From assembly GCF_055900595.2 (NCBI RefSeq), contig NZ_CM148325.1: DNA of 64,000 nt. One strand, 5' to 3'. Under the pieces are notes generated by a model. The model made no database searches and was not told the origin of the DNA. It saw only the letters and a program-made list of their open reading frames with translations. Position numbers and translations under genes: made by a program. Every line of letters begins with the position of its first letter. Position 1 is the stretch's first letter. This document shows positions 72 through 63,136 of this stretch, in pieces.

Positions 72-1076
72 TTAAAGATGAGGAACCGGTAGCACAACGC
101 CCGGTTGCAGGTAATGCTCAATACGCAGTAAAAGATCGGTGATGAGAAGCTCTCGGTTAATACCTGTGACAGACATTAACTGTTCACGAATGTGGCAAAC
201 ATCCCCCAGTATAGCCTGCAGACGCGAGGGAGAAAGATGGTTTGCCAGTTCGACGACCAGGCCCGGCACATCAACATTGGTAACCTGCGCAGCGCCATGA
301 TGGCGTTTTAGCGCATCCATCAGCAACGTTGCCAGCCAGTGTAAACGCGCCGGAGCTTGTTCATGATTAAGGGCCGCTAGCAGCGAATACCAGTCGCCCG
401 ATTGCACGCTATATGCCAGCGCCTGACACAATGTTTCACGAGCCTGCCAGATATCTCCCTGAAACAACGCCAGTGCCGCACCAGGCGAACCGGCGCTTAA
501 GCGCAATGCGGCAAGTAATGCATCCTGTGACATTGTCACTTCGCGTGAAAGCCAGGTCACGGCGTACTGTTCCGGCGGCGGCGCAAGGTAATGTAACCGA
601 CAACGACTACGTAATGTTGCCAGTAAACGTTCAGGCTCGCGGGTAGCAAGGAAAAACCAGGTTTCTGCTGGCGGCTCTTCAAGCGTTTTCAGCAATGCGT
701 TAGCCGCGGCGTCAGTCAGTAAGGCAGCATCGGTTACCCAGACAACTTTCGCACCACCTAAGCGTGCGTGCTCATTTAACTTTTCGGTGACTTCACGTAC
801 CGCATCAATGCCCAGCGCATTTTTCCCTTTTTCGGGAGCCAGGGTGTAATAATCGGGATGCGTGCCAGCCTGCATCAACTGACATCCACGACAGTGACCG
901 CAACTTTTGTGGCCCTGCGGTTGTTGGCAGAGTAAATAACGGCTCAGGGCGTAGATTAAAGCATCCTCGCCCATACCCGGTAACGCCTGAATGAGTAGCG
1001 CATGGTGACCTCTTCCGGCCTGATAGCTGGCTACCAGTTTTTCGAAATCAGGTCGTAACCATGGATACCATCTCAT
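72..1076 (-). CDS. holB: DNA polymerase III delta-prime subunit
   Basis: ORF track 72..1097; trimmed to [14 protein letters not shown] start (334 aa). Start overlaps tmk stop. Confidence 0.95.
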
Positions 1077-2728: not shown

Positions 2729-3538
2729 CTAATTCGGGCGCTCACAAAGTGGGGCTAAATATTCATATAACGTTGCTGACGAAAAGGAGACATCGCCACA
2801 GGCACGTACGGGCATCACTGGCATTAACGCATTACAAATAACCATCTCATCTGCCTGCAACGCCTCTTCCAGAGTGGCTTGCACTTCGACAAGCTGATAA
2901 GAGGATTGTGCCAGTAAACGGATACAGAATTGTCGCATAATGCCGTTAACACCTGCCTGCTCTAGTCGCGGCGTATAAACTACATTGCCCTTCCGCCAGA
3001 ACAAATTAGCCGCACAGCATTCCGTAACCCACCCTTCGCTGTCAAGGACCAGCGCCTCATCAGCGTTTGTCTGCTCAAGATGAGAGCGGATCAATACTTG
3101 TTCAAGCCGATTAAGATGTTTAATACCTGCAAGATGAGGATTGCGCCCCAGCCGCACCGGGCTTAGCGCCAACATCATCCCCTCGTTACGCAAACGATCG
3201 TAATGTGCAGGATAAGCCGTAACGGAGAGAATCCGCGTTGCCGGTCCGCTGTTCAATGTGCTGTACCCTCGCCCGCCACTACCGCGACTGATCACGACCT
3301 TCAGCACACCATTCTGCTGTTCTGCTGCCAGCGTTTTCATCTCTTGTTCAAGCTGAGGCCAGAAGTCACAGGAAATCATCAACCGCTGACAAGCATCCTG
3401 TAGTCGCTGGATATGTGCCGATAACAAACTGACTTTACCGTCGATAACTCTGGCGGTGGTAAAACAACCATCACCAAACTGCGTTGCTCGATCGCTTACT
3501 GCCAGCGATTCCTGCTTATGACCGTTAATTAAGAACAT
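2729..3538 (-). CDS. pabC: aminodeoxychorismate lyase
   Basis: 269 aa fold-type IV PLP enzyme; AAGGAG ribosome-binding site upstream of ATG at 3538. Confidence 0.93.
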
Positions 3539-6144: not shown

Positions 6145-6879
6145 TCAGACCATGTACATCCCGCCGTTCACATGCAAAGTTTCACCCGTGATGTAAGCTG
6201 CTTCGTCGGATGCCAGGAATGCAACCGCGTTGGCGATTTCCTGTGCACCGCCGAGGCGACCCGCAGGAACCTGCGCCAGGATACCCGCACGCTGGTCATC
6301 GCTCAGCGCACGTGTCATGTCCGTTTCAATAAAGCCCGGAGCAACAACGTTTACAGTAATACCGCGTGACGCAACTTCGCGCGCCAGTGATTTACTGAAG
6401 CCGATCAAGCCCGCTTTCGCCGCAGCGTAGTTGGCCTGACCGCCATTTCCCATGGTACCAACCACAGAACCGATAGTGATAATACGACCATGACGCTTTT
6501 TCATCATAGCGCGCATTACCGCTTTTGACAGACGGAAAACAGATGAAAGGTTAGTTTCGATAATATCGTTCCACTCTTCATCTTTCATTCGCATTAACAG
6601 GTTATCACGAGTGATACCGGCATTATTGACCAGGATATCCACTTCACCAAATTCTGCGCGAATTTTTTCCAGAACAGATTCGATAGATGCTGGATCGGTC
6701 ACATTCAACATCAGACCTTTACCGTTAGCACCTAAATAATCGCTGATCGCCTGAGCGCCGTTTTCACTGGTCGCAGTGCCAATAACTTTCGCGCCACGGG
6801 CTGCGAGCGTTTCAGCAATTGCGCGGCCAATTCCGCGGCTTGCACCGGTTACCAGTGCGATTTTTCCTTCAAAATTCAT
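6145..6879 (-). CDS. fabG: 3-oxoacyl-ACP reductase
   Basis: 244 aa short-chain dehydrogenase, TGASRGIG Rossmann motif. Confidence 0.97.
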   Translation of the reverse strand: MNFEGKIALVTGASRGIGRAIAETLAARGAKVIGTATSENGAQAISDYLGANGKGLMLNVTDPASIESVLEKIRAEFGEVDILVNNAGITRDNLLMRMKDEEWNDIIETNLSSVFRLSKAVMRAMMKKRHGRIITIGSVVGTMGNGGQANYAAAKAGLIGFSKSLAREVASRGITVNVVAPGFIETDMTRALSDDQRAGILAQVPAGRLGGAQEIANAVAFLASDEAAYITGETLHVNGGMYMV

Positions 6880-6891
6880 GATTTTCCTCTT

Positions 6892-7821
6892 TTATAGCTC
6901 GAGCGCCGCTGCCATCGCTGAAGGTTCGTTCAGCGCCGAGGCGGTCAGGGTGTCGACAATGCGTTTCGTCAGGCCAGTAAGCACTTTGCCCGGGCCGACT
7001 TCATAAAGATGTTCTATGCCTTGCGCTGCCATGTATTCAACAGACTTCGTCCACTGAACCGGGTTATACAACTGACGTACCAGTGCGTCACGGATGGCAT
7101 CACCATTGGTTTCGCATTTCACATCAACGTTATTCACAACAGGTACTGTTGGTGCGTTAAAGGTGATTTTTGCTAATTCTACTGCCAGTTTGTCGGCTGC
7201 CGGTTTCATCAGCGCACAGTGAGACGGTACGCTCACTGGCAACGGCAGCGCGCGTTTTGCGCCTGCAGCTTTACAGGCAGCGCCAGCACGCTCAACGGCT
7301 TCTTTATGTCCCGCAATTACCACCTGGCCTGGAGAGTTGAAGTTTACCGGAGAAACCACCTGACCTTCTGCAGCTTCTTCACACGCTTTCGCAATAGACG
7401 CATCATCCAGACCGATGATTGCCGCCATAGCGCCCGTTCCTTCCGGTACGGCTTCTTGCATGAACTTACCGCGCATCTCAACCAGACGCACCGCATCAGC
7501 GAAATCAATCACACCAGCGCAAACCAGCGCAGAGTATTCCCCGAGGCTGTGACCGGCCATCATCGCTGGTGCTTTACCGCCCTGCTGCTGCCATACGCGG
7601 TACAGCGCAACTGATGCAGTCAACAGCGCTGGCTGAGTTTGCCAGGTTTTATTAAGTTCTTCGGCTGGTCCCTGCTGAGTCAGCGCCCACAGGTCATAAC
7701 CCAGCGCCGCAGAAGCTTCAGCAAACGTTTCTTCGACAATGGGATAGCTCGCCGCCATATCAGCCAGCATTCCAACGGTTTGAGAACCCTGTCCAGGGAA
7801 CACAAATGCAAATTGCGTCAT
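6892..7821 (-). CDS. fabD: malonyl-CoA:ACP transacylase
   Basis: 309 aa, GHSLGEYSAL active-site motif. Confidence 0.97.
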   Translation of the reverse strand: MTQFAFVFPGQGSQTVGMLADMAASYPIVEETFAEASAALGYDLWALTQQGPAEELNKTWQTQPALLTASVALYRVWQQQGGKAPAMMAGHSLGEYSALVCAGVIDFADAVRLVEMRGKFMQEAVPEGTGAMAAIIGLDDASIAKACEEAAEGQVVSPVNFNSPGQVVIAGHKEAVERAGAACKAAGAKRALPLPVSVPSHCALMKPAADKLAVELAKITFNAPTVPVVNNVDVKCETNGDAIRDALVRQLYNPVQWTKSVEYMAAQGIEHLYEVGPGKVLTGLTKRIVDTLTASALNEPSAMAAALEL

Positions 7822-8857: not shown

Positions 8858-9928
8858 CTACCGCAGAGTTCCGCTTTTGCCACCGTCCAGCAGCTCAAAA
8901 CCAGCTGGGTATACAGATTCCAGGCGAGCGGCAATTCGCTGAGGAACTTGTCGCTGCACCGCCTGCACTGCCTGTTCAATCGCGACCGCAAAAGCTCGCT
9001 GATTGGCCGCACCATGACTTTTTATCACCGTGCCGCGCAATCCTAACAGACAGGCGCCGTTATACTGGTCGGGGTTGAGGTGACTGAATCGCCTCGTCAG
9101 GCTCTTTTGTAGCCAACGCTTTAATAACAGTAGCCACCACGACCGTTTTTTCCCTTCACCCTGAGATTTCAGCAGAGAAAGGAACATCCTGACAACACCT
9201 TCCATCGTCTTTAATGTGACATTTCCTGTAAAGCCGTCACAAACCAGCACATCTGTCTTGCCAGTTAACAACTCATTGGCTTCAAGATAGCCGATATAAT
9301 TGATAGAAGGGATTGTTTTAAGCACTGCTGAGGCATCCCGAATACTGTCGAGACCCTTTACTTCTTCTTCACCAATATTGAGCAACGCCACGCGAGGATT
9401 GGGAATTTCCACCACCTCTTCAGCCAGAACTGAGCCCATAATGGCAAATTGCACCAACATTGTACTGTCACAATCGACGTTGGCCCCTAAATCGAGGACC
9501 ACCGTTTTGCCCTTTTGCTGATGCGGTAATACCGTCACCAGCGCCGGACGCTCAATCCCCTCCAGGGGCTTGAGTAATAATTTTGCCAGCCCCATCAGCG
9601 CCCCGGTATTACCAGCACTGACACAGGCTTGCGCTCGACCTTCTTTCACCAGCTCAAGGGCCACGCGCATTGAACTACCACGACTGGCGCGGATAGCTTG
9701 CGAAGGCCGGGCATCACTGGCGATAACTGACTGCGCAGGAATAATCTGCAGACGCGAACGTTGTTCAAAGTCAGCTTTAGCAAGTAATGGCGTGATGGCG
9801 TCGGGATTGCCGACTAAAAGAAGAGTGAGTTGCGAATTAGAATTCAGTGCCTGCAATGCTGCAGGCACTGTCACGGAAGGGCCAAAATCCCCTCCCATGA
9901 CATCTAACGCCAGGGTTAGACGTGTCAA
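8858..9928 (-). CDS. plsX: phosphate acyltransferase PlsX
   Basis: 356 aa, [18 protein letters not shown]-terminus. Confidence 0.95.
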
Positions 9929-10008
9929 GGTATCGTCGCCGCCCGGTTTGGTCTTTCCCCAGTTGCCTGGGGAAAATCCTCACTAAGCTTCATCACGCAG
10001 ACGCGTGA

Positions 10009-10194
<186 letters not shown>

Positions 10195-10233
10195 TCAATT
10201 ACGGTTTATCCCCGATCCAACGGGGAGCACCAA

Positions 10234-10767
<534 letters not shown>

Positions 10768-10953
10768 TTAACTTTGTAACGTCATAGAGTCAAAGAAAAA
10801 GGCAGCCTGTGGTTGCCTTTTGCCAATAATTCGCACACATTGCGGGTTACTGCTTTATTTTCGTTCAGTGCTGATAACGAACATCAACCTGCAAAACGAA
10901 GCGCATAGTTTAAAATGGCTATCATCAATACGCTATATCTGTTGGAAAAAAAT

Positions 10954-11538
10954 ATGCCTAAACTTATTTTAGCCTCCACCTCGCCCTGGCGTCGCGCTCT
11001 TCTGGAAAAACTGCAAATCTCTTTTGAATGTGCAGCACCCGAGGTCGACGAAACCCCACGCAGTGACGAATCACCGCGACAGTTGGTGCTTCGACTGGCG
11101 CAGGAAAAAGCGCAATCTCTGGCGTCACGTTATCCGGATCATTTAATTATTGGTTCAGACCAGGTATGTGTTCTTGATGGCGAAATCACCGGTAAACCGT
11201 TAACGGAAGAAAATGCCCGTCTGCAATTACGCAAAGCCAGCGGCAATATCGTCACCTTCTATACTGGCCTGGCGTTGTTTAATTCGGCGAATGGGCATCT
11301 GCAAACAGAAGTGGAGCCTTTTGACGTCCATTTCCGTCACCTGAGCGAGGCGGAGATTGATAATTACGTGCGTAAGGAGCATCCCCTGCACTGTGCGGGT
11401 AGCTTTAAGAGTGAAGGATTTGGCATTACGCTGTTTGAGCGTTTAGAAGGGCGTGACCCTAACACGCTGGTTGGTTTACCGCTAATCGCGCTGTGTCAGA
11501 TGTTACGTCGGGAAGGGAAAAATCCGCTGATGGGATAG
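10954..11538 (+). CDS. yceF: Maf-like nucleotide pyrophosphatase YceF
   Basis: ORF track 10915..11538 trimmed to [14 protein letters not shown] (194 aa). Confidence 0.9.
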
Positions 11539-11544
11539 TTTTTT

Positions 11545-11625
11545 ACGCCGGATGCAGGTATGCCGCATCCGGCAATCGGTGCTGGCTGCCTGATGCGGCG
11601 TAAACGCCTTATCAGGCCTACCGCC
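11545..11625. repeat. REP (repetitive extragenic palindrome) copies between convergent yceF and rluC
   Basis: GCCGGATGCGGCGTAAACGCCTTATC(A/C)GGCCTAC-type palindromic units. Confidence 0.7.
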
Positions 11626-11649
11626 CATTATCAGGTTTATATGCTTGTA

Positions 11650-12609
11650 TTAGCGCGCGTTACGCAGTTTCTGCAAACAACGCTTCAACCCCTCATCCAT
11701 CGGTGCTTCGATACGCATCACCTCACCGGTTCCCGGATGGGTAAACTTCAACGCTGCGGCGTGCAGGAACAGACGATTTAATCCCGTGCCTGCTTCAGTG
11801 AGCTGTCTGTCAAATTCACGGTCACCGTAGCGATCGTCAAAGGCAATCGGATGACCCGCATACTGTGTATGCACACGGATCTGATGAGTACGCCCAGTTA
11901 CCGGGCTACAACGCACCAGGGTGGCAAATGCATAGCGTTCTTCCACTTTAAAGCGTGTTTCCGACGGTTTACCTTCCTGACTCACACGCACGATACGTTC
12001 GCCACTTTGCAGAATATTTTTCAGCAACGGCGCTTGTACGCTCTTCACATGCGACTGCCACTGACCGCGCACCAGCGCCAGGTAATCTTTTTGCATCCCT
12101 TTTTCACGTAATTGCTCATGCAGAGAACGCAACGCCGAGCGTTTTTTCGCTACCAGCAACACACCGGAAGTGTCCCGGTCGAGACGATGTACCAGTTCAA
12201 GGAACCGCGCTTCCGGGCGCAACGCCCGTAAACCTTCGATAACGCCGAAGCTTAAACCACTGCCGCCATGTACTGCCGTACCGGAAGGTTTATTCAGCAC
12301 CAGGATATGCTCATCTTCATATAAGATGACGTCCGCCAGCGCCGCCACCTTTTGCAGATGTGGCGAAACCGCCTCCTCTTCACGTTCAGCAACGCGAACC
12401 GGTGGAATACGCACCTCATCACCTGCTTCGAGTTTATATTCAGGCTTAATACGTTTTTTGTTCACCCGCACTTCGCCTTTACGCAAAATACGGTAAATCA
12501 TACTTTTAGGTACGCCTTTCAATTGGGTACGCAAAAAGTTGTCGATACGTTGCCCCGCTTCGTCCGCGGTGATAGCAACAATTTTTACGGATGGAGTCTC
12601 TGTTTTCAT
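11650..12609 (-). CDS. rluC: 23S rRNA pseudouridine synthase RluC
   Basis: 319 aa, S4-like N-terminal domain plus RluA-family catalytic core. Confidence 0.95.
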   Translation of the reverse strand: MKTETPSVKIVAITADEAGQRIDNFLRTQLKGVPKSMIYRILRKGEVRVNKKRIKPEYKLEAGDEVRIPPVRVAEREEEAVSPHLQKVAALADVILYEDEHILVLNKPSGTAVHGGSGLSFGVIEGLRALRPEARFLELVHRLDRDTSGVLLVAKKRSALRSLHEQLREKGMQKDYLALVRGQWQSHVKSVQAPLLKNILQSGERIVRVSQEGKPSETRFKVEERYAFATLVRCSPVTGRTHQIRVHTQYAGHPIAFDDRYGDREFDRQLTEAGTGLNRLFLHAAALKFTHPGTGEVMRIEAPMDEGLKRCLQKLRNAR

Positions 12610-12819
12610 GGTGGGCGATTCTAATTAGCCAACAGGATTCGCGCCACTCATTTTTCTATGCTTATATTTAGTTTTGCACCTTATTACTTCACTACGTCAT
12701 CACTTTATTGATGGTTATTAAACCAATCACCATTAAGAAGTGAAAAAACTGTGAGTAAGCGGGTGATAAATGGTAAAAGTCATCTTGCTATAACAAGGCT
12801 TGCAGTGGAATAATGAGAA

Positions 12820-13181
12820 CGTTTCCGTGTCCATCCTTGTTAAAACAAGAAATTTTACGGAATAACCCATTTTGCCCGACCGATCATCCACGCAGCAATG
12901 GCGTAAGACGTATTGATCTTTCAGGCAGTTAGCGGGCTGCGGGTTGCAGTCCTTACCGGTAGATGGAAATATTTCTGGAGAGTAATACCCAGTCTGTTTC
13001 TTTGATAATTGCGCTGTTTTTCCGCATGAAAAACGGGCAACCGACACTCTGCGCCTCTTTGAGCTGACGATAACCGTGAGGTTGGCGACGCGACTAGACA
13101 CGAGGCCATCGGTTCACACCCGGAAAGGCGTTACTTTGCCCGCAGCTTAGTCGTCAATGTAAGAATAATGAGTAAGTTACG
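12820..13181 (+). promoter_or_regulatory. rne promoter and long structured 5' leader (RNase E autoregulation); extent approximate
   Basis: 572-bp divergent rluC/rne spacer; leader length of about 360 nt is from established knowledge of rne, not measured here. Confidence 0.5.
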
Positions 13182-16100
13182 ATGAAAAGAATGTTAATCA
13201 ACGCAACTCAGCAGGAAGAGTTGCGCGTTGCCCTTGTAGATGGGCAGCGTCTGTATGACCTGGATATCGAAAGTCCAGGGCACGAACAGAAAAAGGCAAA
13301 CATCTACAAAGGTAAAATCACCCGCATTGAACCGAGTCTGGAAGCTGCTTTTGTTGATTACGGCGCTGAACGTCACGGTTTCCTCCCACTTAAAGAAATT
13401 GCCCGCGAATATTTCCCTGCTAACTACAGTGCTCATGGCCGTCCCAACATTAAAGATGTGTTGCGTGAAGGTCAGGAAGTTATTGTTCAGATTGATAAAG
13501 AAGAGCGCGGTAACAAAGGCGCAGCACTGACCACCTTTATCAGCCTGGCAGGTAGCTATCTGGTTCTGATGCCGAACAACCCGCGCGCGGGTGGTATTTC
13601 TCGCCGTATTGAAGGCGACGACCGTACCGAATTAAAAGAAGCACTGGCAAGCCTTGAACTGCCGGAAGGCATGGGGCTTATCGTGCGCACCGCTGGCGTC
13701 GGCAAATCTGCTGAGGCGCTGCAATGGGATTTAAGCTTCCGCCTGAAACACTGGGAAGCTATTAAAAAAGCCGCTGAAAGCCGCCCTGCCCCGTTCCTGA
13801 TCCATCAGGAGAGCAACGTCATCGTTCGCGCATTCCGCGATTACTTACGTCAGGACATCGGCGAAATCCTTATCGATAACCCGAAAGTGCTCGAACTGGC
13901 GCGTCAGCATATCGCTGCATTAGGTCGCCCGGATTTCAGCAGCAAAATCAAGCTGTACACTGGTGAAATTCCGCTGTTCAGCCACTACCAGATCGAGTCG
14001 CAGATCGAGTCCGCCTTCCAGCGTGAAGTCCGTCTGCCGTCTGGTGGTTCTATTGTTATCGACAGCACTGAAGCGTTAACTGCCATTGATATCAACTCCG
14101 CACGCGCAACCCGCGGCGGCGATATCGAAGAAACCGCGTTTAACACCAACCTCGAAGCTGCCGATGAGATTGCTCGTCAGCTGCGCCTGCGTGACCTCGG
14201 CGGCCTGATTGTTATCGACTTCATTGACATGACGCCAGTCCGCCACCAGCGTGCGGTAGAAAACCGTCTGCGTGAAGCGGTGCGTCAGGACCGTGCACGT
14301 ATTCAAATCAGCCATATTTCTCGCTTTGGTCTGCTGGAAATGTCGCGTCAGCGCCTGAGTCCATCGCTGGGTGAGTCCAGCCATCACGTCTGCCCGCGCT
14401 GCTCTGGTACCGGCACCGTGCGTGACAACGAATCCCTGTCGCTCTCTATTCTGCGTCTGATTGAAGAAGAAGCGCTGAAAGAGAACACCCAGGAAGTCCA
14501 TGCCATTGTTCCTGTGCCAATCGCTTCTTACCTGCTGAACGAAAAACGCTCTGCGGTAAATGCCATTGAAACTCGTCAGGACGGCGTGCGCTGTGTGATT
14601 GTGCCAAACGATCAGATGGAAACCCCGCACTACCATGTGCTGCGCGTACGCAAAGGGGAAGAAACCCCAACGTTAAGCTACATGCTGCCGAAACTGCATG
14701 AAGAAGCGATGGCGCTGCCGTCTGAAGAAGAGTTCGCTGAACGTAAGCGTCCGGAACAGCCTGCGCTGGCAACCTTTGCCATGCCGGATGTGCCGCCAGC
14801 GCCAACCCCGGCTGAACCTGCCGCGCCTGTCGTAGCCCCAACGCCTAAAGCAACACCGGCAACACCAGCAGCTTCTGCACAACCGGGGCTGTTGAGTCGC
14901 TTCTTCAGCGCACTGAAAGCGCTTTTCAGCGGTGGTGAAGAAACCAAACCGACCGAGCAACCGGCACCGAAAACTGAAACGAAACCGGAACGTCAACAGG
15001 ACCGCCGTAAGCCACGTCAGAACAACCGTCGTGACCGTAATGAACGCCGCGACACACGTAGCGAACGTAATGAAGGCAGCGATAATCGCGAAGAAAACCG
15101 CCGTAATCGTCGCCAGGCACAGCAGCAGACTGCCGAGACACGTGAAAGCCGTCAGCAGGCTGAGGTAACGGAAAAAGCGCGTACCACCGACGAGCAGCAA
15201 GCGCCGCGTCGTGAACGTAGCCGCCGCCGTAATGATGATAAACGTCAGGCGCAACAAGAAGCGAAAGCGCTGAATGTTGAAGAGCAATCTGTTCAGGAAA
15301 CCGAACAGGAAGAACGTGTACGTCCGGTTCAGCCGCGTCGTAAACAGCGCCAGCTGAATCAGAAGGTGCGTTACGAGCAAAGCGTAGCCGAAGAAACGGT
15401 AGCCGCACCAGTGGTGGAAGAAACTGCCGCTGCCGAAACCATCGTTCAGGAAGTGCCTGCTCCGCGTACAGAACTGGCGAAAGTCCCGCTGCCAGTCGTA
15501 GCGCAAACTGCGCCGGAACAGCAGGAAGAGAACAATGCTGATAACCGTGATAACGGTGGCATGCCGCGTCGCTCTCGCCGCTCGCCTCGTCACCTGCGCG
15601 TAAGTGGTCAGCGTCGTCGTCGCTATCGTGACGAGCGTTACCCGACCCAGTCGCCAATGCCGTTAACCGTAGCGTGCGCGTCTCCGGAACTGGCCTCTGG
15701 CAAAGTCTGGATCCGCTATCCGATTGTACGTCCGCAAGATGTACAGGTTGAAGAGCAGCGCGAACAGGAAGAAGTACAAGTGCAACCGATGGTGACTGAG
15801 GTCCCTGTCGCCGCCGCTGTCGAACCGGTTGTTAGCGCACCGATTGTTGAAGAAGTGGCTGAAGTCGTAGAAGCCCCCGTTCAGGTTACCGAACCGCAAC
15901 CGGAAGTGGTTGAAACGACGCATCCTGAAGTGATTGCCGCCGCGGTAACTGAACAGCCGCAGGTGATTACCGAGTCTGATGTTGCCGTAGCCCAGGAAGT
16001 TGCAGAACACGCAGAACCGGTGGTTGAACCGCAGGAAGAGACGGCTGATATTGAAGAAGTTGCCGAAACTGCTGAGGTTGTGGTTGCTGAGCCTGAAGTT

Positions 16101-16367
16101 GTTGCTCAACCTGCCGCGCCAGTCGTCGCTGAAGTCGCAGCAGAAGTTGAAACGGTAGCTGCGGTTGAACCTGAGGTCACCGTTGAGCATAACCACGCTA
16201 CCGCGCCAATGACGCGTGCTCCGGCTCCGGCATATGTTCCGGAGGCACCGCGTCACAGTGACTGGCAGCGCCCTGCTTTTACCTTCGAAGGTAAAGGTGC
16301 CGCAGGTGGTCATACGGCAACGCATCATGCATCTGCCGCTCCTGCGCGTCCGCAACCTGTTGAGTAA
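13182..16367 (+). CDS. rne: ribonuclease E
   Basis: 1061 aa: S1/catalytic N-terminal half ([30 protein letters not shown]) and low-complexity Arg/Glu/Pro-rich C-terminal scaffold. Confidence 0.98.
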
Positions 16368-16387
16368 TAATTAGCTCAAGTAATCAA

Positions 16388-16415
16388 GCCCTGGTAACTG
16401 CCAGGGCTTTTTTAT
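16388..16415 (+). terminator. rne intrinsic terminator
   Basis: GCCCTGGTAACTGCCAGGGC hairpin followed by TTTTTT. Confidence 0.75.
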
Positions 16416-16551
16416 TTCATCTTTGAATCAACATATTAAATGGCATCCTTGCTAACCAACAATACAAAATAGGCAAAAAAATGCCCGCCCCGGCGATCCC
16501 AGAGCGGGCAGACAAAACATACCCAGTTTCATGATATGTTTTAAAGCGAGC

Positions 16552-17505
16552 TTATTTGTTGAGCTGGAACAGCGACAATCCCTGCATATCTGTAAATGCT
16601 TTATACGATGCCTGCAATGCCGTTTGCTGCATGATGTAAGATGAAATAGTTGCATTCCAGTCCACATCAACCAGATCGCTCATCTGCTGCGTTTGCCCTA
16701 AAGCGCGATCGCTACCTAATGAATCCAGCGACTCCAGTTCGTTCAGCTGCGTGCCTAATTCCGCGCGAACGGTCAGCACATTGTTCAGCGAGTTTTTCAG
16801 TCCGCGGTTGGTTTTATCCAGTGCCGCAGCGGCGGTTTCTTTATCCGCTTCGCTTTCCGCGACCGGCGTTTTCAGGGCTGCGATGGCGCTATCCAGCATG
16901 GCAAAAAGATTGGTTTCAGAAGCGCTACCGTCTGGTTCCGCTACCGCGTTGCTGGTAATACTGTCGAAAATTTTGTCACCCGTGTGCCCTATCACCATCG
17001 AACGCGAAGCATCGACCTGTTGTTTAATACTTTCTGCTCCGCCAACATATTCGCCGTCTGCCTCACTAAACGGCGCAGTTTCTGTTTTATAACCGGCAAA
17101 AATGTAGCGCCCGTTACCATCCGTAGTGTTCGCCAGATTCAGCAACTGGTCACGAATACCCTGGATATCGGTTGCCAACGACGCCCGGTCATCATCACTC
17201 AAGGTGCCATTGCTGGCGTAGACAATTTTTTCCTGAGCATTCTGGATAGCAGTGGTGACCTGGCTAAGCACACTCTCTTCCAGTGACACTTTTTGAGTGG
17301 CGAAAGTACGCGCCAGCGTGTACTGGCTGTTTTGCGCCTGTGCCTGGGAGAGAACAACAGCTTGTGATGCAGCAATGGGATCATCTGAAGGGTTAACGAC
17401 TCGCTTACCCGTCGACATCTGTTCGCCGTACTTCATCCATTCGGCCTGAGAATTGGTGATGCCACGCATGTTTTGCTGGTACATCATCTGGGTACTGAAA
17501 CGCAT
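16552..17505 (-). CDS. flgL: flagellar hook-filament junction protein 2 (HAP3)
   Basis: 317 aa; conserved flg operon position; minus-strand hairpin plus T-run downstream at about 16480..16515. Confidence 0.95.
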   Translation of the reverse strand: MRFSTQMMYQQNMRGITNSQAEWMKYGEQMSTGKRVVNPSDDPIAASQAVVLSQAQAQNSQYTLARTFATQKVSLEESVLSQVTTAIQNAQEKIVYASNGTLSDDDRASLATDIQGIRDQLLNLANTTDGNGRYIFAGYKTETAPFSEADGEYVGGAESIKQQVDASRSMVIGHTGDKIFDSITSNAVAEPDGSASETNLFAMLDSAIAALKTPVAESEADKETAAAALDKTNRGLKNSLNNVLTVRAELGTQLNELESLDSLGSDRALGQTQQMSDLVDVDWNATISSYIMQQTALQASYKAFTDMQGLSLFQLNK

Positions 17506-58658: not shown

Positions 58659-58715
58659 AACTCTCTCCTGTATTCAATTCCCGCCAAGGATAGCAGGAAA
58701 CCTGATGCTTTATTA

Positions 58716-59159
<444 letters not shown>

Positions 59160-59183
59160 TTATCAAAATCATTAAGTTAAGGT

Positions 59184-59244
59184 AGATACACATCTTGTCA
59201 TATGATCAAATGGTTTCGCCAAAAATCAATAATCAGACAACAAA

Positions 59245-59252
<8 letters not shown>
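59184..59252 (-). ncRNA. IS10 RNA-OUT antisense RNA (position inferred from canonical IS10 layout)
   Basis: Canonical IS10 places pOUT transcription from about nt 115 outward to about nt 47; mapped onto this copy by offset from the outside end. Confidence 0.5.
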
Positions 59253-61028
<1,776 letters not shown>

Positions 61029-61222
61029 TTATCGTTATGATCTACAAAGGCCACCAGCATAACAAATCCGTGGTCGGTGGCAAAAAAAGCAGATTTCGCT
61101 TATTAAAACTGCATATTGATTGAAGTTTGAATAAACGCGCGATTTTTTTAAAAAGTTTGTTGACCTCAGGTCATGATTTCCCTAAATTAGCGCCCGTTCC
61201 AGCAAGACAGGAACGACAATTT

Positions 61223-61310
61223 GGTGAGGTGTCCGAGTGGCTGAAGGAGCACGCCTGGAAAGTGTGTATACGGCAACGTATCGGGGGTTCGAATCCCCCC
61301 CTCACCGCCA
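61223..61310 (+). tRNA. serX: tRNA-Ser (anticodon GGA)
   Basis: GGTGAGGTGTCCGAGTGGCTGAAGGAGCACGCCTGGAAAGTGTGTATACGGCAACGTATCGGGGGTTCGAATCCCCCCCTCACCGCCA: class II tRNA with long variable arm and encoded CCA; hairpin plus T-run terminator follows. Confidence 0.9.
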
Positions 61311-61413
61311 TCTTTAAAGAAGAGCTCGTACGAAGGTACGGGCTTTTTTTTCGTATATTGCACACACCGGGGGATGAAAAGCCCCGACCGGGGTTCGACA
61401 ACTGGCGACAAAC

Positions 61414-62781
61414 TCAATCATCATCCTTGCAGTTGATAAGAATTTCTGCCTCTTTTACAACTATCTTATTACGTCCGGTTTCTTTCGCTTCATATAGTGC
61501 ATTATCAGCCATTCGATAGATTTCATTCGGATTTAACGCACTTCCCTGAGTCACCACAGCGCCAATGCTAATCGTCACTTTTTGCGGTATGGCGTATTCA
61601 GGATTATCGCCTGTCAAACGCTCTACATTTGCCCTTATCCTTTCGGCTAAAACTTTCGCGCTTTCAGTATCGGTCTCCGTCAGCAAGACGCCAAACTCTT
61701 CGCCGCCAACGCGTGCTAAAAGGTCATTTGGTCGTATGCTTTTCCCAATGATGCTCACCACTGTTTTTATCACCTGATCGCCAACCGGATGCCCCCACGT
61801 ATCGTTAACTTTTTTAAAGTGATCGATATCCATAATCATGACACAATAAGACGTTTTTTGGGCTGATGCTGATTGAGCCTTCAGTTCATTGAAAAAATAA
61901 TTCCTGTTAAATATATTAGTTAATGGATCGCGATGGGCAATGTTCTTTGTTACTCGTAGCGCACTGAAAATATGGCACATAAATATTACCATAACGGTTA
62001 ATTTACTGACTACTTCAATAGTGCGGCTAATATACCAAGTGGACACACTATACCTGCTCATAAATAACAGAGAGATATTATACAGCACGGCACAGAAAGC
62101 AATCACTGATACTCCATTCCAGATATCACAGCGTAAACCATTAAAGTATAGATTAACCAAAAGCAAGATTAACCACATGAAAATCATTATGGTAACATAT
62201 GAGGTTTTCCAGACTACCTGACCATTTTCATTTGTTAACTCGGCAATATGTAAACTGTAGTCATCATAATGACTACTTAGCATGTGAGCAACTGCCGCCC
62301 CCCCAAAAATAAAAAATAGGCTTATACACAATGTCATTTTTTTGGAAAAAAAACAGCGTTTCTTATTGTTTTCACTAACTTTATTCACCAGCGCTAGCAA
62401 TATTAACATGCACAAACTCATCTGACGAAACAAATAATAAATTGCAATATCATTTTGTACAACGCTGCTTATCAAATGCCCCTCAATAAATTGCTGAATG
62501 ATAATGGCAGTTTTAACAAAGTAAATCAAACAACTCAGAAACGCTAAACTAAGTATACAGTTTGAAAATTGCACACGATCATAAATGAAATACAATTGCA
62601 TGAAAATAAATGCAACGGTATCGATAAAAAATAAAGCAATCATAACCATTAGATAGGTTGATCGTGGAACAACCTCCTCAACGGTTGGCTGATTAAACCA
62701 ACTATTTACCAAAACGAATGCAAGCCCAAACAATAAGCTCACCAATACAGTACTACTAATTCCCAAATAGTCTTTTTCCAT
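61414..62781 (-). CDS. dgcT: membrane-anchored diguanylate cyclase (GGDEF/GGEEF domain)
   Basis: Polytopic N-terminal domain plus C-terminal GGDEF domain with RVGGEEFGVLL active site; start set at MEKDYLGISSTVL (ORF track begins 30 codons upstream). Confidence 0.88.
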   Translation of the reverse strand: MEKDYLGISSTVLVSLLFGLAFVLVNSWFNQPTVEEVVPRSTYLMVMIALFFIDTVAFIFMQLYFIYDRVQFSNCILSLAFLSCLIYFVKTAIIIQQFIEGHLISSVVQNDIAIYYLFRQMSLCMLILLALVNKVSENNKKRCFFSKKMTLCISLFFIFGGAAVAHMLSSHYDDYSLHIAELTNENGQVVWKTSYVTIMIFMWLILLLVNLYFNGLRCDIWNGVSVIAFCAVLYNISLLFMSRYSVSTWYISRTIEVVSKLTVMVIFMCHIFSALRVTKNIAHRDPLTNIFNRNYFFNELKAQSASAQKTSYCVMIMDIDHFKKVNDTWGHPVGDQVIKTVVSIIGKSIRPNDLLARVGGEEFGVLLTETDTESAKVLAERIRANVERLTGDNPEYAIPQKVTISIGAVVTQGSALNPNEIYRMADNALYEAKETGRNKIVVKEAEILINCKDDD

Positions 62782-63136
62782 AAAGCTACACCAATCTGTA
62801 GGTTGTAGATCCCTTTCTGTCACTAATAGATATAAGAACTGTACTGTTGTCAATATAAAAATCCACCACAAACAATACCAATGATGATAGTTGCAGACCG
62901 CAATTATTATTGCCTTAGTGCTTTATACATTCTTCGCGACAAGACAGGCTTGCAAATACATATAAATGGTTATAAGGAAATCCTTATAAAACATTAATTC
63001 ATAGATATATTAGGAATAACAATTGAATCCGTGAGTACAGTAACACTGCATTTCATCAGGACTTTCGAAAAATCCGATATCATGCATCGGAATTTACTGA
63101 TTTAATTATTTTAATCCTAATTTATTTTGAAAAAGG

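Follow-up and report, generated by a model that had tools for sequence, protein, structure and literature searches.

The gene-free serX-dgcT junction of an Escherichia coli chromosome as a probable ancestral form of a tRNA integration site

The tRNA gene serX is a textbook hotspot for integration, and E. coli is known to be polymorphic for the DNA adjoining it, which may be present or absent. Genomic islands described from the serX region include PAI-CFT073-serX, PAI-UTI89-serX, LAA and the SRL PAI (PMC7545054). The direct repeat TGGCGGTGAGGGGG flanks OI-43, OI-48 and the SRL PAI (PMC3064760), and a 14-bp direct repeat has likewise been published for the SRL PAI (PMC7545054). Integration at a serX-type site has been shown for the SRL PAI and OI-48 (PMC3064760, PMC7545054), the latter of which sits between serX and ycdU in O157:H7 (PMC3064760). 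Here we analyzed a 64-kb stretch of E. coli DNA, referred to as the window, in which serX is followed almost directly by the diguanylate cyclase gene dgcT. We find that this adjacency is real, already known and an unremarkable polymorphism at a well-known tRNA integration hotspot. The junction is very probably the ancestral, unoccupied form of the site, a reading to which we assign a probability of roughly 0.9.

The serX gene, its attachment core and the 103-bp spacer

A search of the 64-kb window with ARAGORN returned one tRNA gene and no other, an intact serX at 61223-61310 on the plus strand. Its cloverleaf displays a long variable arm and a GGA anticodon, as expected for tRNA-Ser(GGA). The gene scores 53.8 bits against the Rfam tRNA model (RF00005, gathering score 29), and its alignment with K-12 serX shows identical sequences. 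The copy is told apart from its paralogue serW, which adjoins infA/clpA, by its neighbour ghrA, fragments of which lie immediately upstream; the same synteny is found in AST85 and K-12. A candidate serX promoter, TTGACC and TAAATT with a 17-nt spacer (61160-61188, plus strand), is located 35 nt upstream of the tRNA 5′ end. The pair matches the consensus at 9 of 12 positions, which suggests that it may drive serX.

The convergent gene on the other side of the spacer is dgcT (ycdT; 61414-62781, minus strand). The minus-strand open reading frame extends over 61414-62871, and the ATG at 62781 yields a protein of 455 amino acids with MASE4 and GGDEF domains (Pfam, 1e-64 and 3e-50, respectively). 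In AST85, whose DNA is 100% identical here, RefSeq annotates a 455-aa GGDEF-domain protein divergent from the upstream pgaA, and other genomes name the gene dgcT. The MASE4 membrane domain combined with GGDEF, and the divergent orientation to pgaA at the AST85 locus, identify the product as the diguanylate cyclase DgcT/YcdT.

As serX ends at 61310 and the dgcT stop codon, TCA on the plus strand, occupies 61414-61416, the gap between the two genes (61311-61413) amounts to 103 bp. This agrees with a first-pass annotation of the DNA, which had estimated a separation of about 100 bp without intervening genes: no open reading frame of at least 40 aa lies wholly inside the gap. The same annotation had placed a terminator there, and the gap indeed contains one strong hairpin followed by eight T residues. 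We predict this element (61324-61351, plus strand; stem GCTCGTAC/GTACGGGC, loop GAAG, then T8) to be the intrinsic terminator of serX. The spacer folds with an energy of -36.4 kcal/mol, corresponding to z = -3.66 relative to shuffled sequences, and the hairpin has the build of a rho-independent terminator, with a core stem of 8 bp, 16 bp when its A/U extension is included, and then U8. A simple terminator scan did not report the plus-strand element and flagged a terminator-like match on the minus strand only, at 61340-61327, so that the plus-strand call is based on the RNA fold and direct reading of the sequence. Since an A-rich run upstream extends the stem to 16 bp, dgcT transcripts arriving from the opposite side may also terminate there. 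The minus-orientation match at the hairpin fits such a two-way terminator between convergent serX and dgcT, a function that the hairpin may serve as judged from its predicted fold. Sub-threshold matches to sX4 and Thr_leader in 60900-61700 scored well below the gathering thresholds and were dismissed as look-alikes of the tRNA and the terminator.

The spacer is related to the tandem repeats found downstream of serX in other strains. Positions 61311-61410 (plus strand) form a collinear match to the opening 100 nt of the repeat unit of K-12, which is 181 bp long; the identity is about 98%, and the match runs as far as GGCGACA at 61410. Three further bases, AAC, lead to the dgcT stop. Each K-12 unit begins with the last 19 nt of serX and continues with the terminator and spacer sequence. 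Two of these units reach the gathering score of the Rfam RtT family (RF00391), at 46.3 bits, and RefSeq annotates such units downstream of serX as RtT sRNA. The window spacer is thus homologous to the 5′ part of units recognized as relatives of the RtT repeats of the tyrT operon, but it differs from them in being cut off at 100 of 181 nt and in having no RF00391 match. Indeed, none was found in 60900-61700 even at E <= 1 (gathering score 45 bits), because the window copy is too short. In our reading, transcription of serX runs rightwards and would end at the strong hairpin and its U8 tract. The rest of the 103-bp spacer is a truncated copy of an RtT-like unit, present as 181-bp tandem repeats in other strains, and dgcT converges from the other side, with its stop 3 bp past the truncated unit.

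The number of extra 181-bp units 3′ of serX differs among strains: none in the window, one in E200086 (locus 3001-3284), three in K-12 (locus 11990-12565) and about two in the outgroup genome L008 (8369-8759). E200086 carries the dgcT allele of the window and an identical dgcT junction, but its serX-dgcT gap measures 284 bp owing to one additional complete unit. Unit copy number therefore varies even within the lineage of the window. This variation bears on an alternative explanation of the short gap, namely that it is an assembly artefact in which 181-bp RtT repeats or an island were collapsed. Short-read assemblies can collapse repeats, and E200086 is joined by other genomes with the same dgcT allele and one more unit. 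However, three independent complete genomes (AST85, Z0117EC0005 and E500002) match 61311-62900 at 100% in a single piece, and more than 1100 other complete genomes have the same adjacency. A collapse would moreover affect at most one 181-bp unit and no gene. We consider an artefact extremely improbable and treat the short gap as genuine.

serX ends in the 14 nt CCCCCTCACCGCCA (61297-61310), and the published repeat TGGCGGTGAGGGGG is the same sequence read on the opposite strand. This 14-bp tRNA 3′ end is also the attachment core of the serX/serW islands, i.e. OI-43 and OI-48 of O157:H7, the SRL PAI of Shigella, and PAI-CFT073-serX and its relatives. In contrast to these, the window contains no island, integrase or second core copy: with up to one mismatch allowed, the core occurs once in 64 kb, and the 103 bp that separate serX from dgcT are free of integrase and island genes. 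The single core copy together with the lack of an island indicates that attB of serX is unoccupied. The core is the attachment sequence used by islands with P4-family integrases (OI-48/SpLE1, the SRL PAI, ExPEC serX islands), and the attB of the window may be competent for recombination. K-12 has four copies of the core because of its RtT-like repeats. As every RtT-like unit holds the core, the number of potential island attachment sites differs among strains.

Occupied versions of the site are found in other genomes. The island of ETEC4070, with its tyrosine-recombinase gene, exceeds 20 kb and ends in ...GGCGGT; CCCCCTCACCGCCA comes next, and then the window-type spacer and dgcT. This island thus entered a chromosome with the arrangement of the window. 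In PK5086, a CP4-like island with cbtA/cbeA begins at the tRNA end.

The K-12 layout and other arrangements among E. coli genomes

The first-pass annotation had described K-12 as carrying ymdE, ycdU and an IS3 copy in this neighbourhood. MG1655 confirms this description and has three tandem RtT-like repeats besides. The order in its b1025-b1032 interval is dgcT (b1025), IS3D (insE4/insF4), the ymdE pseudogene, ycdU, 735 bp of non-coding DNA and serX; the non-coding stretch consists of three tandem 181-bp units and a partial fourth. Common to MG1655 and the window are an identical serX, its terminator, the initial 100 nt of the spacer (about 98%) and the genes of the two flanks (ghrA-ycdXYZ-csg and dgcT-pgaABCD-phoH, respectively). 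They differ in the distance from the dgcT stop to serX, which is 3330 bp in MG1655 vs 103 bp in the window, and in the three extra RtT-like units (with four att cores), ycdU, ymdE′ and IS3D. They also differ in the DgcT protein, as that of K-12 has 452 aa and another C-terminus than the 455 aa of the window. The description of the window as the empty version of a tRNA-adjacent variable site is upheld, given that it lacks all of the K-12 extra DNA and has a single att core.

We then located the breakpoints of homology between the two types. Coming from serX, the homology with genomes of the ycdU type extends to 61371 (E1 type) or to 61410 (K-12 type, after full units), and on the dgcT side it resumes only at 61457, so that the last 14 dgcT codons differ between the window and the ycdU type. 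The breakpoints delimit 85 bp of the window (61372-61456), including these 14 codons, in whose place the ymdE-ycdU-type genomes K-12, O104:H4 and E1 have about 1.7 kb of foreign DNA. The ycdU segment has a GC content of 41.9% vs 50% for the window, but dgcT itself has 37-39%, and low GC is therefore no clean separator of the segment from its neighbour. An IS3 next to dgcT is common to K-12, O104:H4 and E1. The extra DNA of K-12 is not a tRNA-integrated island. It would stem from an older exchange of sequence where the spacer meets dgcT, by which the last dgcT codons were rewritten as well. Concerning the course of events, an ancestor of K-12, the other ycdU carriers and O157 would have had about 85 bp of the spacer and dgcT 3′ end swapped for a low-GC segment of about 1.7 kb with ycdU and a fragment of a malonyltransferase gene (ymdE). 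After this replacement, IS3 would also have inserted next to dgcT. The direction of the ycdU event is one that we infer from the comparisons described below.

The protein ends reflect the same division. DgcT of the window terminates in ...KEAEILINCKDDD and the K-12 type in ...RDVVNFCESP, the latter being the end of the 452-aa proteins of K-12 and O104:H4. The 455-aa end, ...KEAEI(L/V)IN(C/R)KDD(D/E)*, is found in the window, ST131, ETEC4070 and the island copy of NCTC10444. Alleles of dgcT whose nucleotide sequences diverge by as much as 11% have this end in common. The 452-aa end, by contrast, occurs in genomes of the ycdU type only.

To assess the frequency of the arrangements, we searched 5426 complete E. 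coli genomes. The contiguous order ghrA-serX-dgcT was present in 1203 of them and a 501-bp junction query was covered in 1137, so that direct serX-dgcT adjacency characterizes 21-22% of the genomes, among them O25b:H4-ST131 and NRG 857C. ymdE-ycdU was detected in 2601 genomes (48%). The window-type 3′ junction between spacer and dgcT, wherever serX lies, was found in 1479 (27%), Nissle 1917 included. The approximately 280-340 genomes beyond the adjacency count presumably have an island between serX and the junction, or a second copy of dgcT.

Classes of junction were assigned in 60 records taken at even intervals from the results of the junction search. Direct adjacency was seen in 13 and one or more full RtT units downstream of serX (K-12-like) in 26, while in 11 records, e.g. 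PK5086, homology stopped exactly at the tRNA 3′ end. In three records ycdU directly followed a short spacer (E1 type), and in four dgcT-pga was absent and a DUF2726 gene preceded phoH. The last class is represented by THO-008 (locus 6162-7527), which lacks dgcT-pgaABCD, has the DUF2726 gene between serX and phoH, and loses homology to the window spacer at 61394. The pga-negative strains Tob1, Fec101 and B-8638 have been described as lacking ycdT-pga between phoH and csgG (PMC5635171). B2-type genomes (ST131 strain 751 and NRG 857C) resemble the window: serX and dgcT are directly adjacent across a spacer of 104 bp, the junction is the same, and DgcT has 455 aa and ends in ...KDDE*. They differ from it in their alleles, as the identity of spacer and dgcT to those of the window is no more than about 89-92%. 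Regarding the synteny comparison called for in the first-pass annotation, the adjacency is thus real and K-12 does differ; the arrangement is, however, not remarkable, as it occurs in 21-22% of 5426 genomes and the outgroup locus is equally gene-free.

Polarity of the serX-dgcT junction

To determine which state is ancestral, we looked for an outgroup by collecting dgcT loci from one genome per species. The search gave 27 loci, 26 of which encode distant GGDEF proteins from unrelated phyla; the only true orthologous locus was that of L008, a divergent Escherichia. Its csg-ghrA flank is 89-90% identical to E. coli, vs 97.6-98.0% among E. coli, and its DgcT is 77% identical. The order in L008 is serX, about 391 bp of RtT-like units and dgcT, with the GGCGACA junction and the ...KDDD* C-terminus as in the window. 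Neither ycdU nor any other gene lies between serX and dgcT at this outgroup locus. As L008 has no ymdE-ycdU but the same spacer/dgcT junction and the same 455-aa end, it indicates that the state of the window is the ancestral one.

The opposite scenario is that the window state is secondary, a K-12-like ancestor with ymdE-ycdU having lost this DNA by deletion. The ymdE-ycdU arrangement is the most frequent single state (48% of genomes), and tandem RtT repeats could promote deletions, as the one-unit difference within the lineage of the window illustrates. Yet a deletion is unable to create the 46 bp (61411-61456) that the window holds and K-12 is missing. These 46 bp, and with them the 455-aa C-terminus, are preserved in the outgroup as well as in dgcT alleles of high divergence, and ETEC4070, although occupied by an island, keeps the same spacer/dgcT junction behind its att repeat. 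A secondary loss consequently appears very unlikely to us. Direct adjacency is likely to be ancestral and the ycdU state of K-12 derived, a polarity drawn from one outgroup genome (L008) and parsimony across recombining alleles.

Being probably ancestral and found in roughly a fifth of the complete E. coli genomes, the adjacency is ordinary. What the comparison clarifies is that the arrangement without island and ycdU is very probably the ancestral one, and that it is the usual one in major ExPEC lineages, ST131 for example. K-12, the reference that often serves as the default, would hold a derived insertion that altered the DgcT C-terminus. Caution is thus advisable when K-12 coordinates or the K-12 DgcT are taken as “wild type”.

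The divergent dgcT block and other features of the locus

The dgcT gene of the window shows 89.3% nucleotide identity to the K-12 allele. More generally, dgcT and the sequence directly flanking it differ by about 10% from the alleles of K-12, ST131 and ETEC4070, with the DNA on both sides 97-100% identical. The divergent block covers approximately 61311-62900, i.e. the spacer, dgcT and about 120 bp upstream of it, and is only 81-95% identical per 100 bp to ETEC4070, ST131 and K-12. From 62900 (pgaA onward), the window is again 98-100% identical to ETEC4070. The allele is rare, with about 16 complete genomes at an identity of at least 99.5%. The identity of only about 90% over dgcT raised the possibility that the window derives from a cryptic clade and not from E. 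coli proper. This was rejected, as the csg-ghrA region is 97.7% identical to K-12 and 98.0% to ST131.

Several genomes, including NCTC10444 (locus 8900-17350), F11, LR-31 and PEC41, contain a second, apparently mobile dgcT-pgaABCD-′phoH module elsewhere in the chromosome, bordered by IS3, IS30 and IS911 fragments. In NCTC10444, the dgcT of the module has an overall identity of 95.6% to the window allele, which rises to 97-100% over 61400-62100, the 3′ half of the gene; the pgaA-B of the module is only about 76% identical. This module keeps part of the serX-side spacer, which indicates that it was captured from a chromosome with direct adjacency. An origin of the NCTC10444 island in the species of L008 was considered and rejected, since the two are only 80-85% identical.

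The block of about 61311-62900 has the appearance of a mosaic segment the size of a gene, bounded on one side by the serX 3′ end, and the identity pattern suggests gene conversion between chromosomal and mobile copies of dgcT. A tentative extension would be that dgcT is a cassette subject to horizontal exchange, for which the serX/RtT spacer repeatedly provides the crossover point, and that RtT units could multiply the att sites available to islands. We regard this as possible but doubtful. If true, the c-di-GMP input to PNAG biofilm synthesis would be a horizontally swapped cassette.

Two further features were noted in the neighbourhood. The ghrA gene upstream of serX is split by a complete IS10 of 1329 bp (elsewhere annotated as ISVsa5) at 59138-60466, leaving minus-strand fragments at 58713-59137 and 60467-61028. 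The element encodes a 402-aa transposase (59245-60453), has outside and inside terminal repeats and is flanked by the 9-bp target duplication CGCCAGGCC. AST85, which matches the window at 100% over 60467-62900, has an intact ghrA at the IS10 site. Finally, unrelated to the serX-dgcT finding, the phoH gene of K-12 (locus 859-1052, minus strand) contains a full-length Rfam match to Ysr251 (Yersinia sRNA 251, antisense) with a score of 189 bits.
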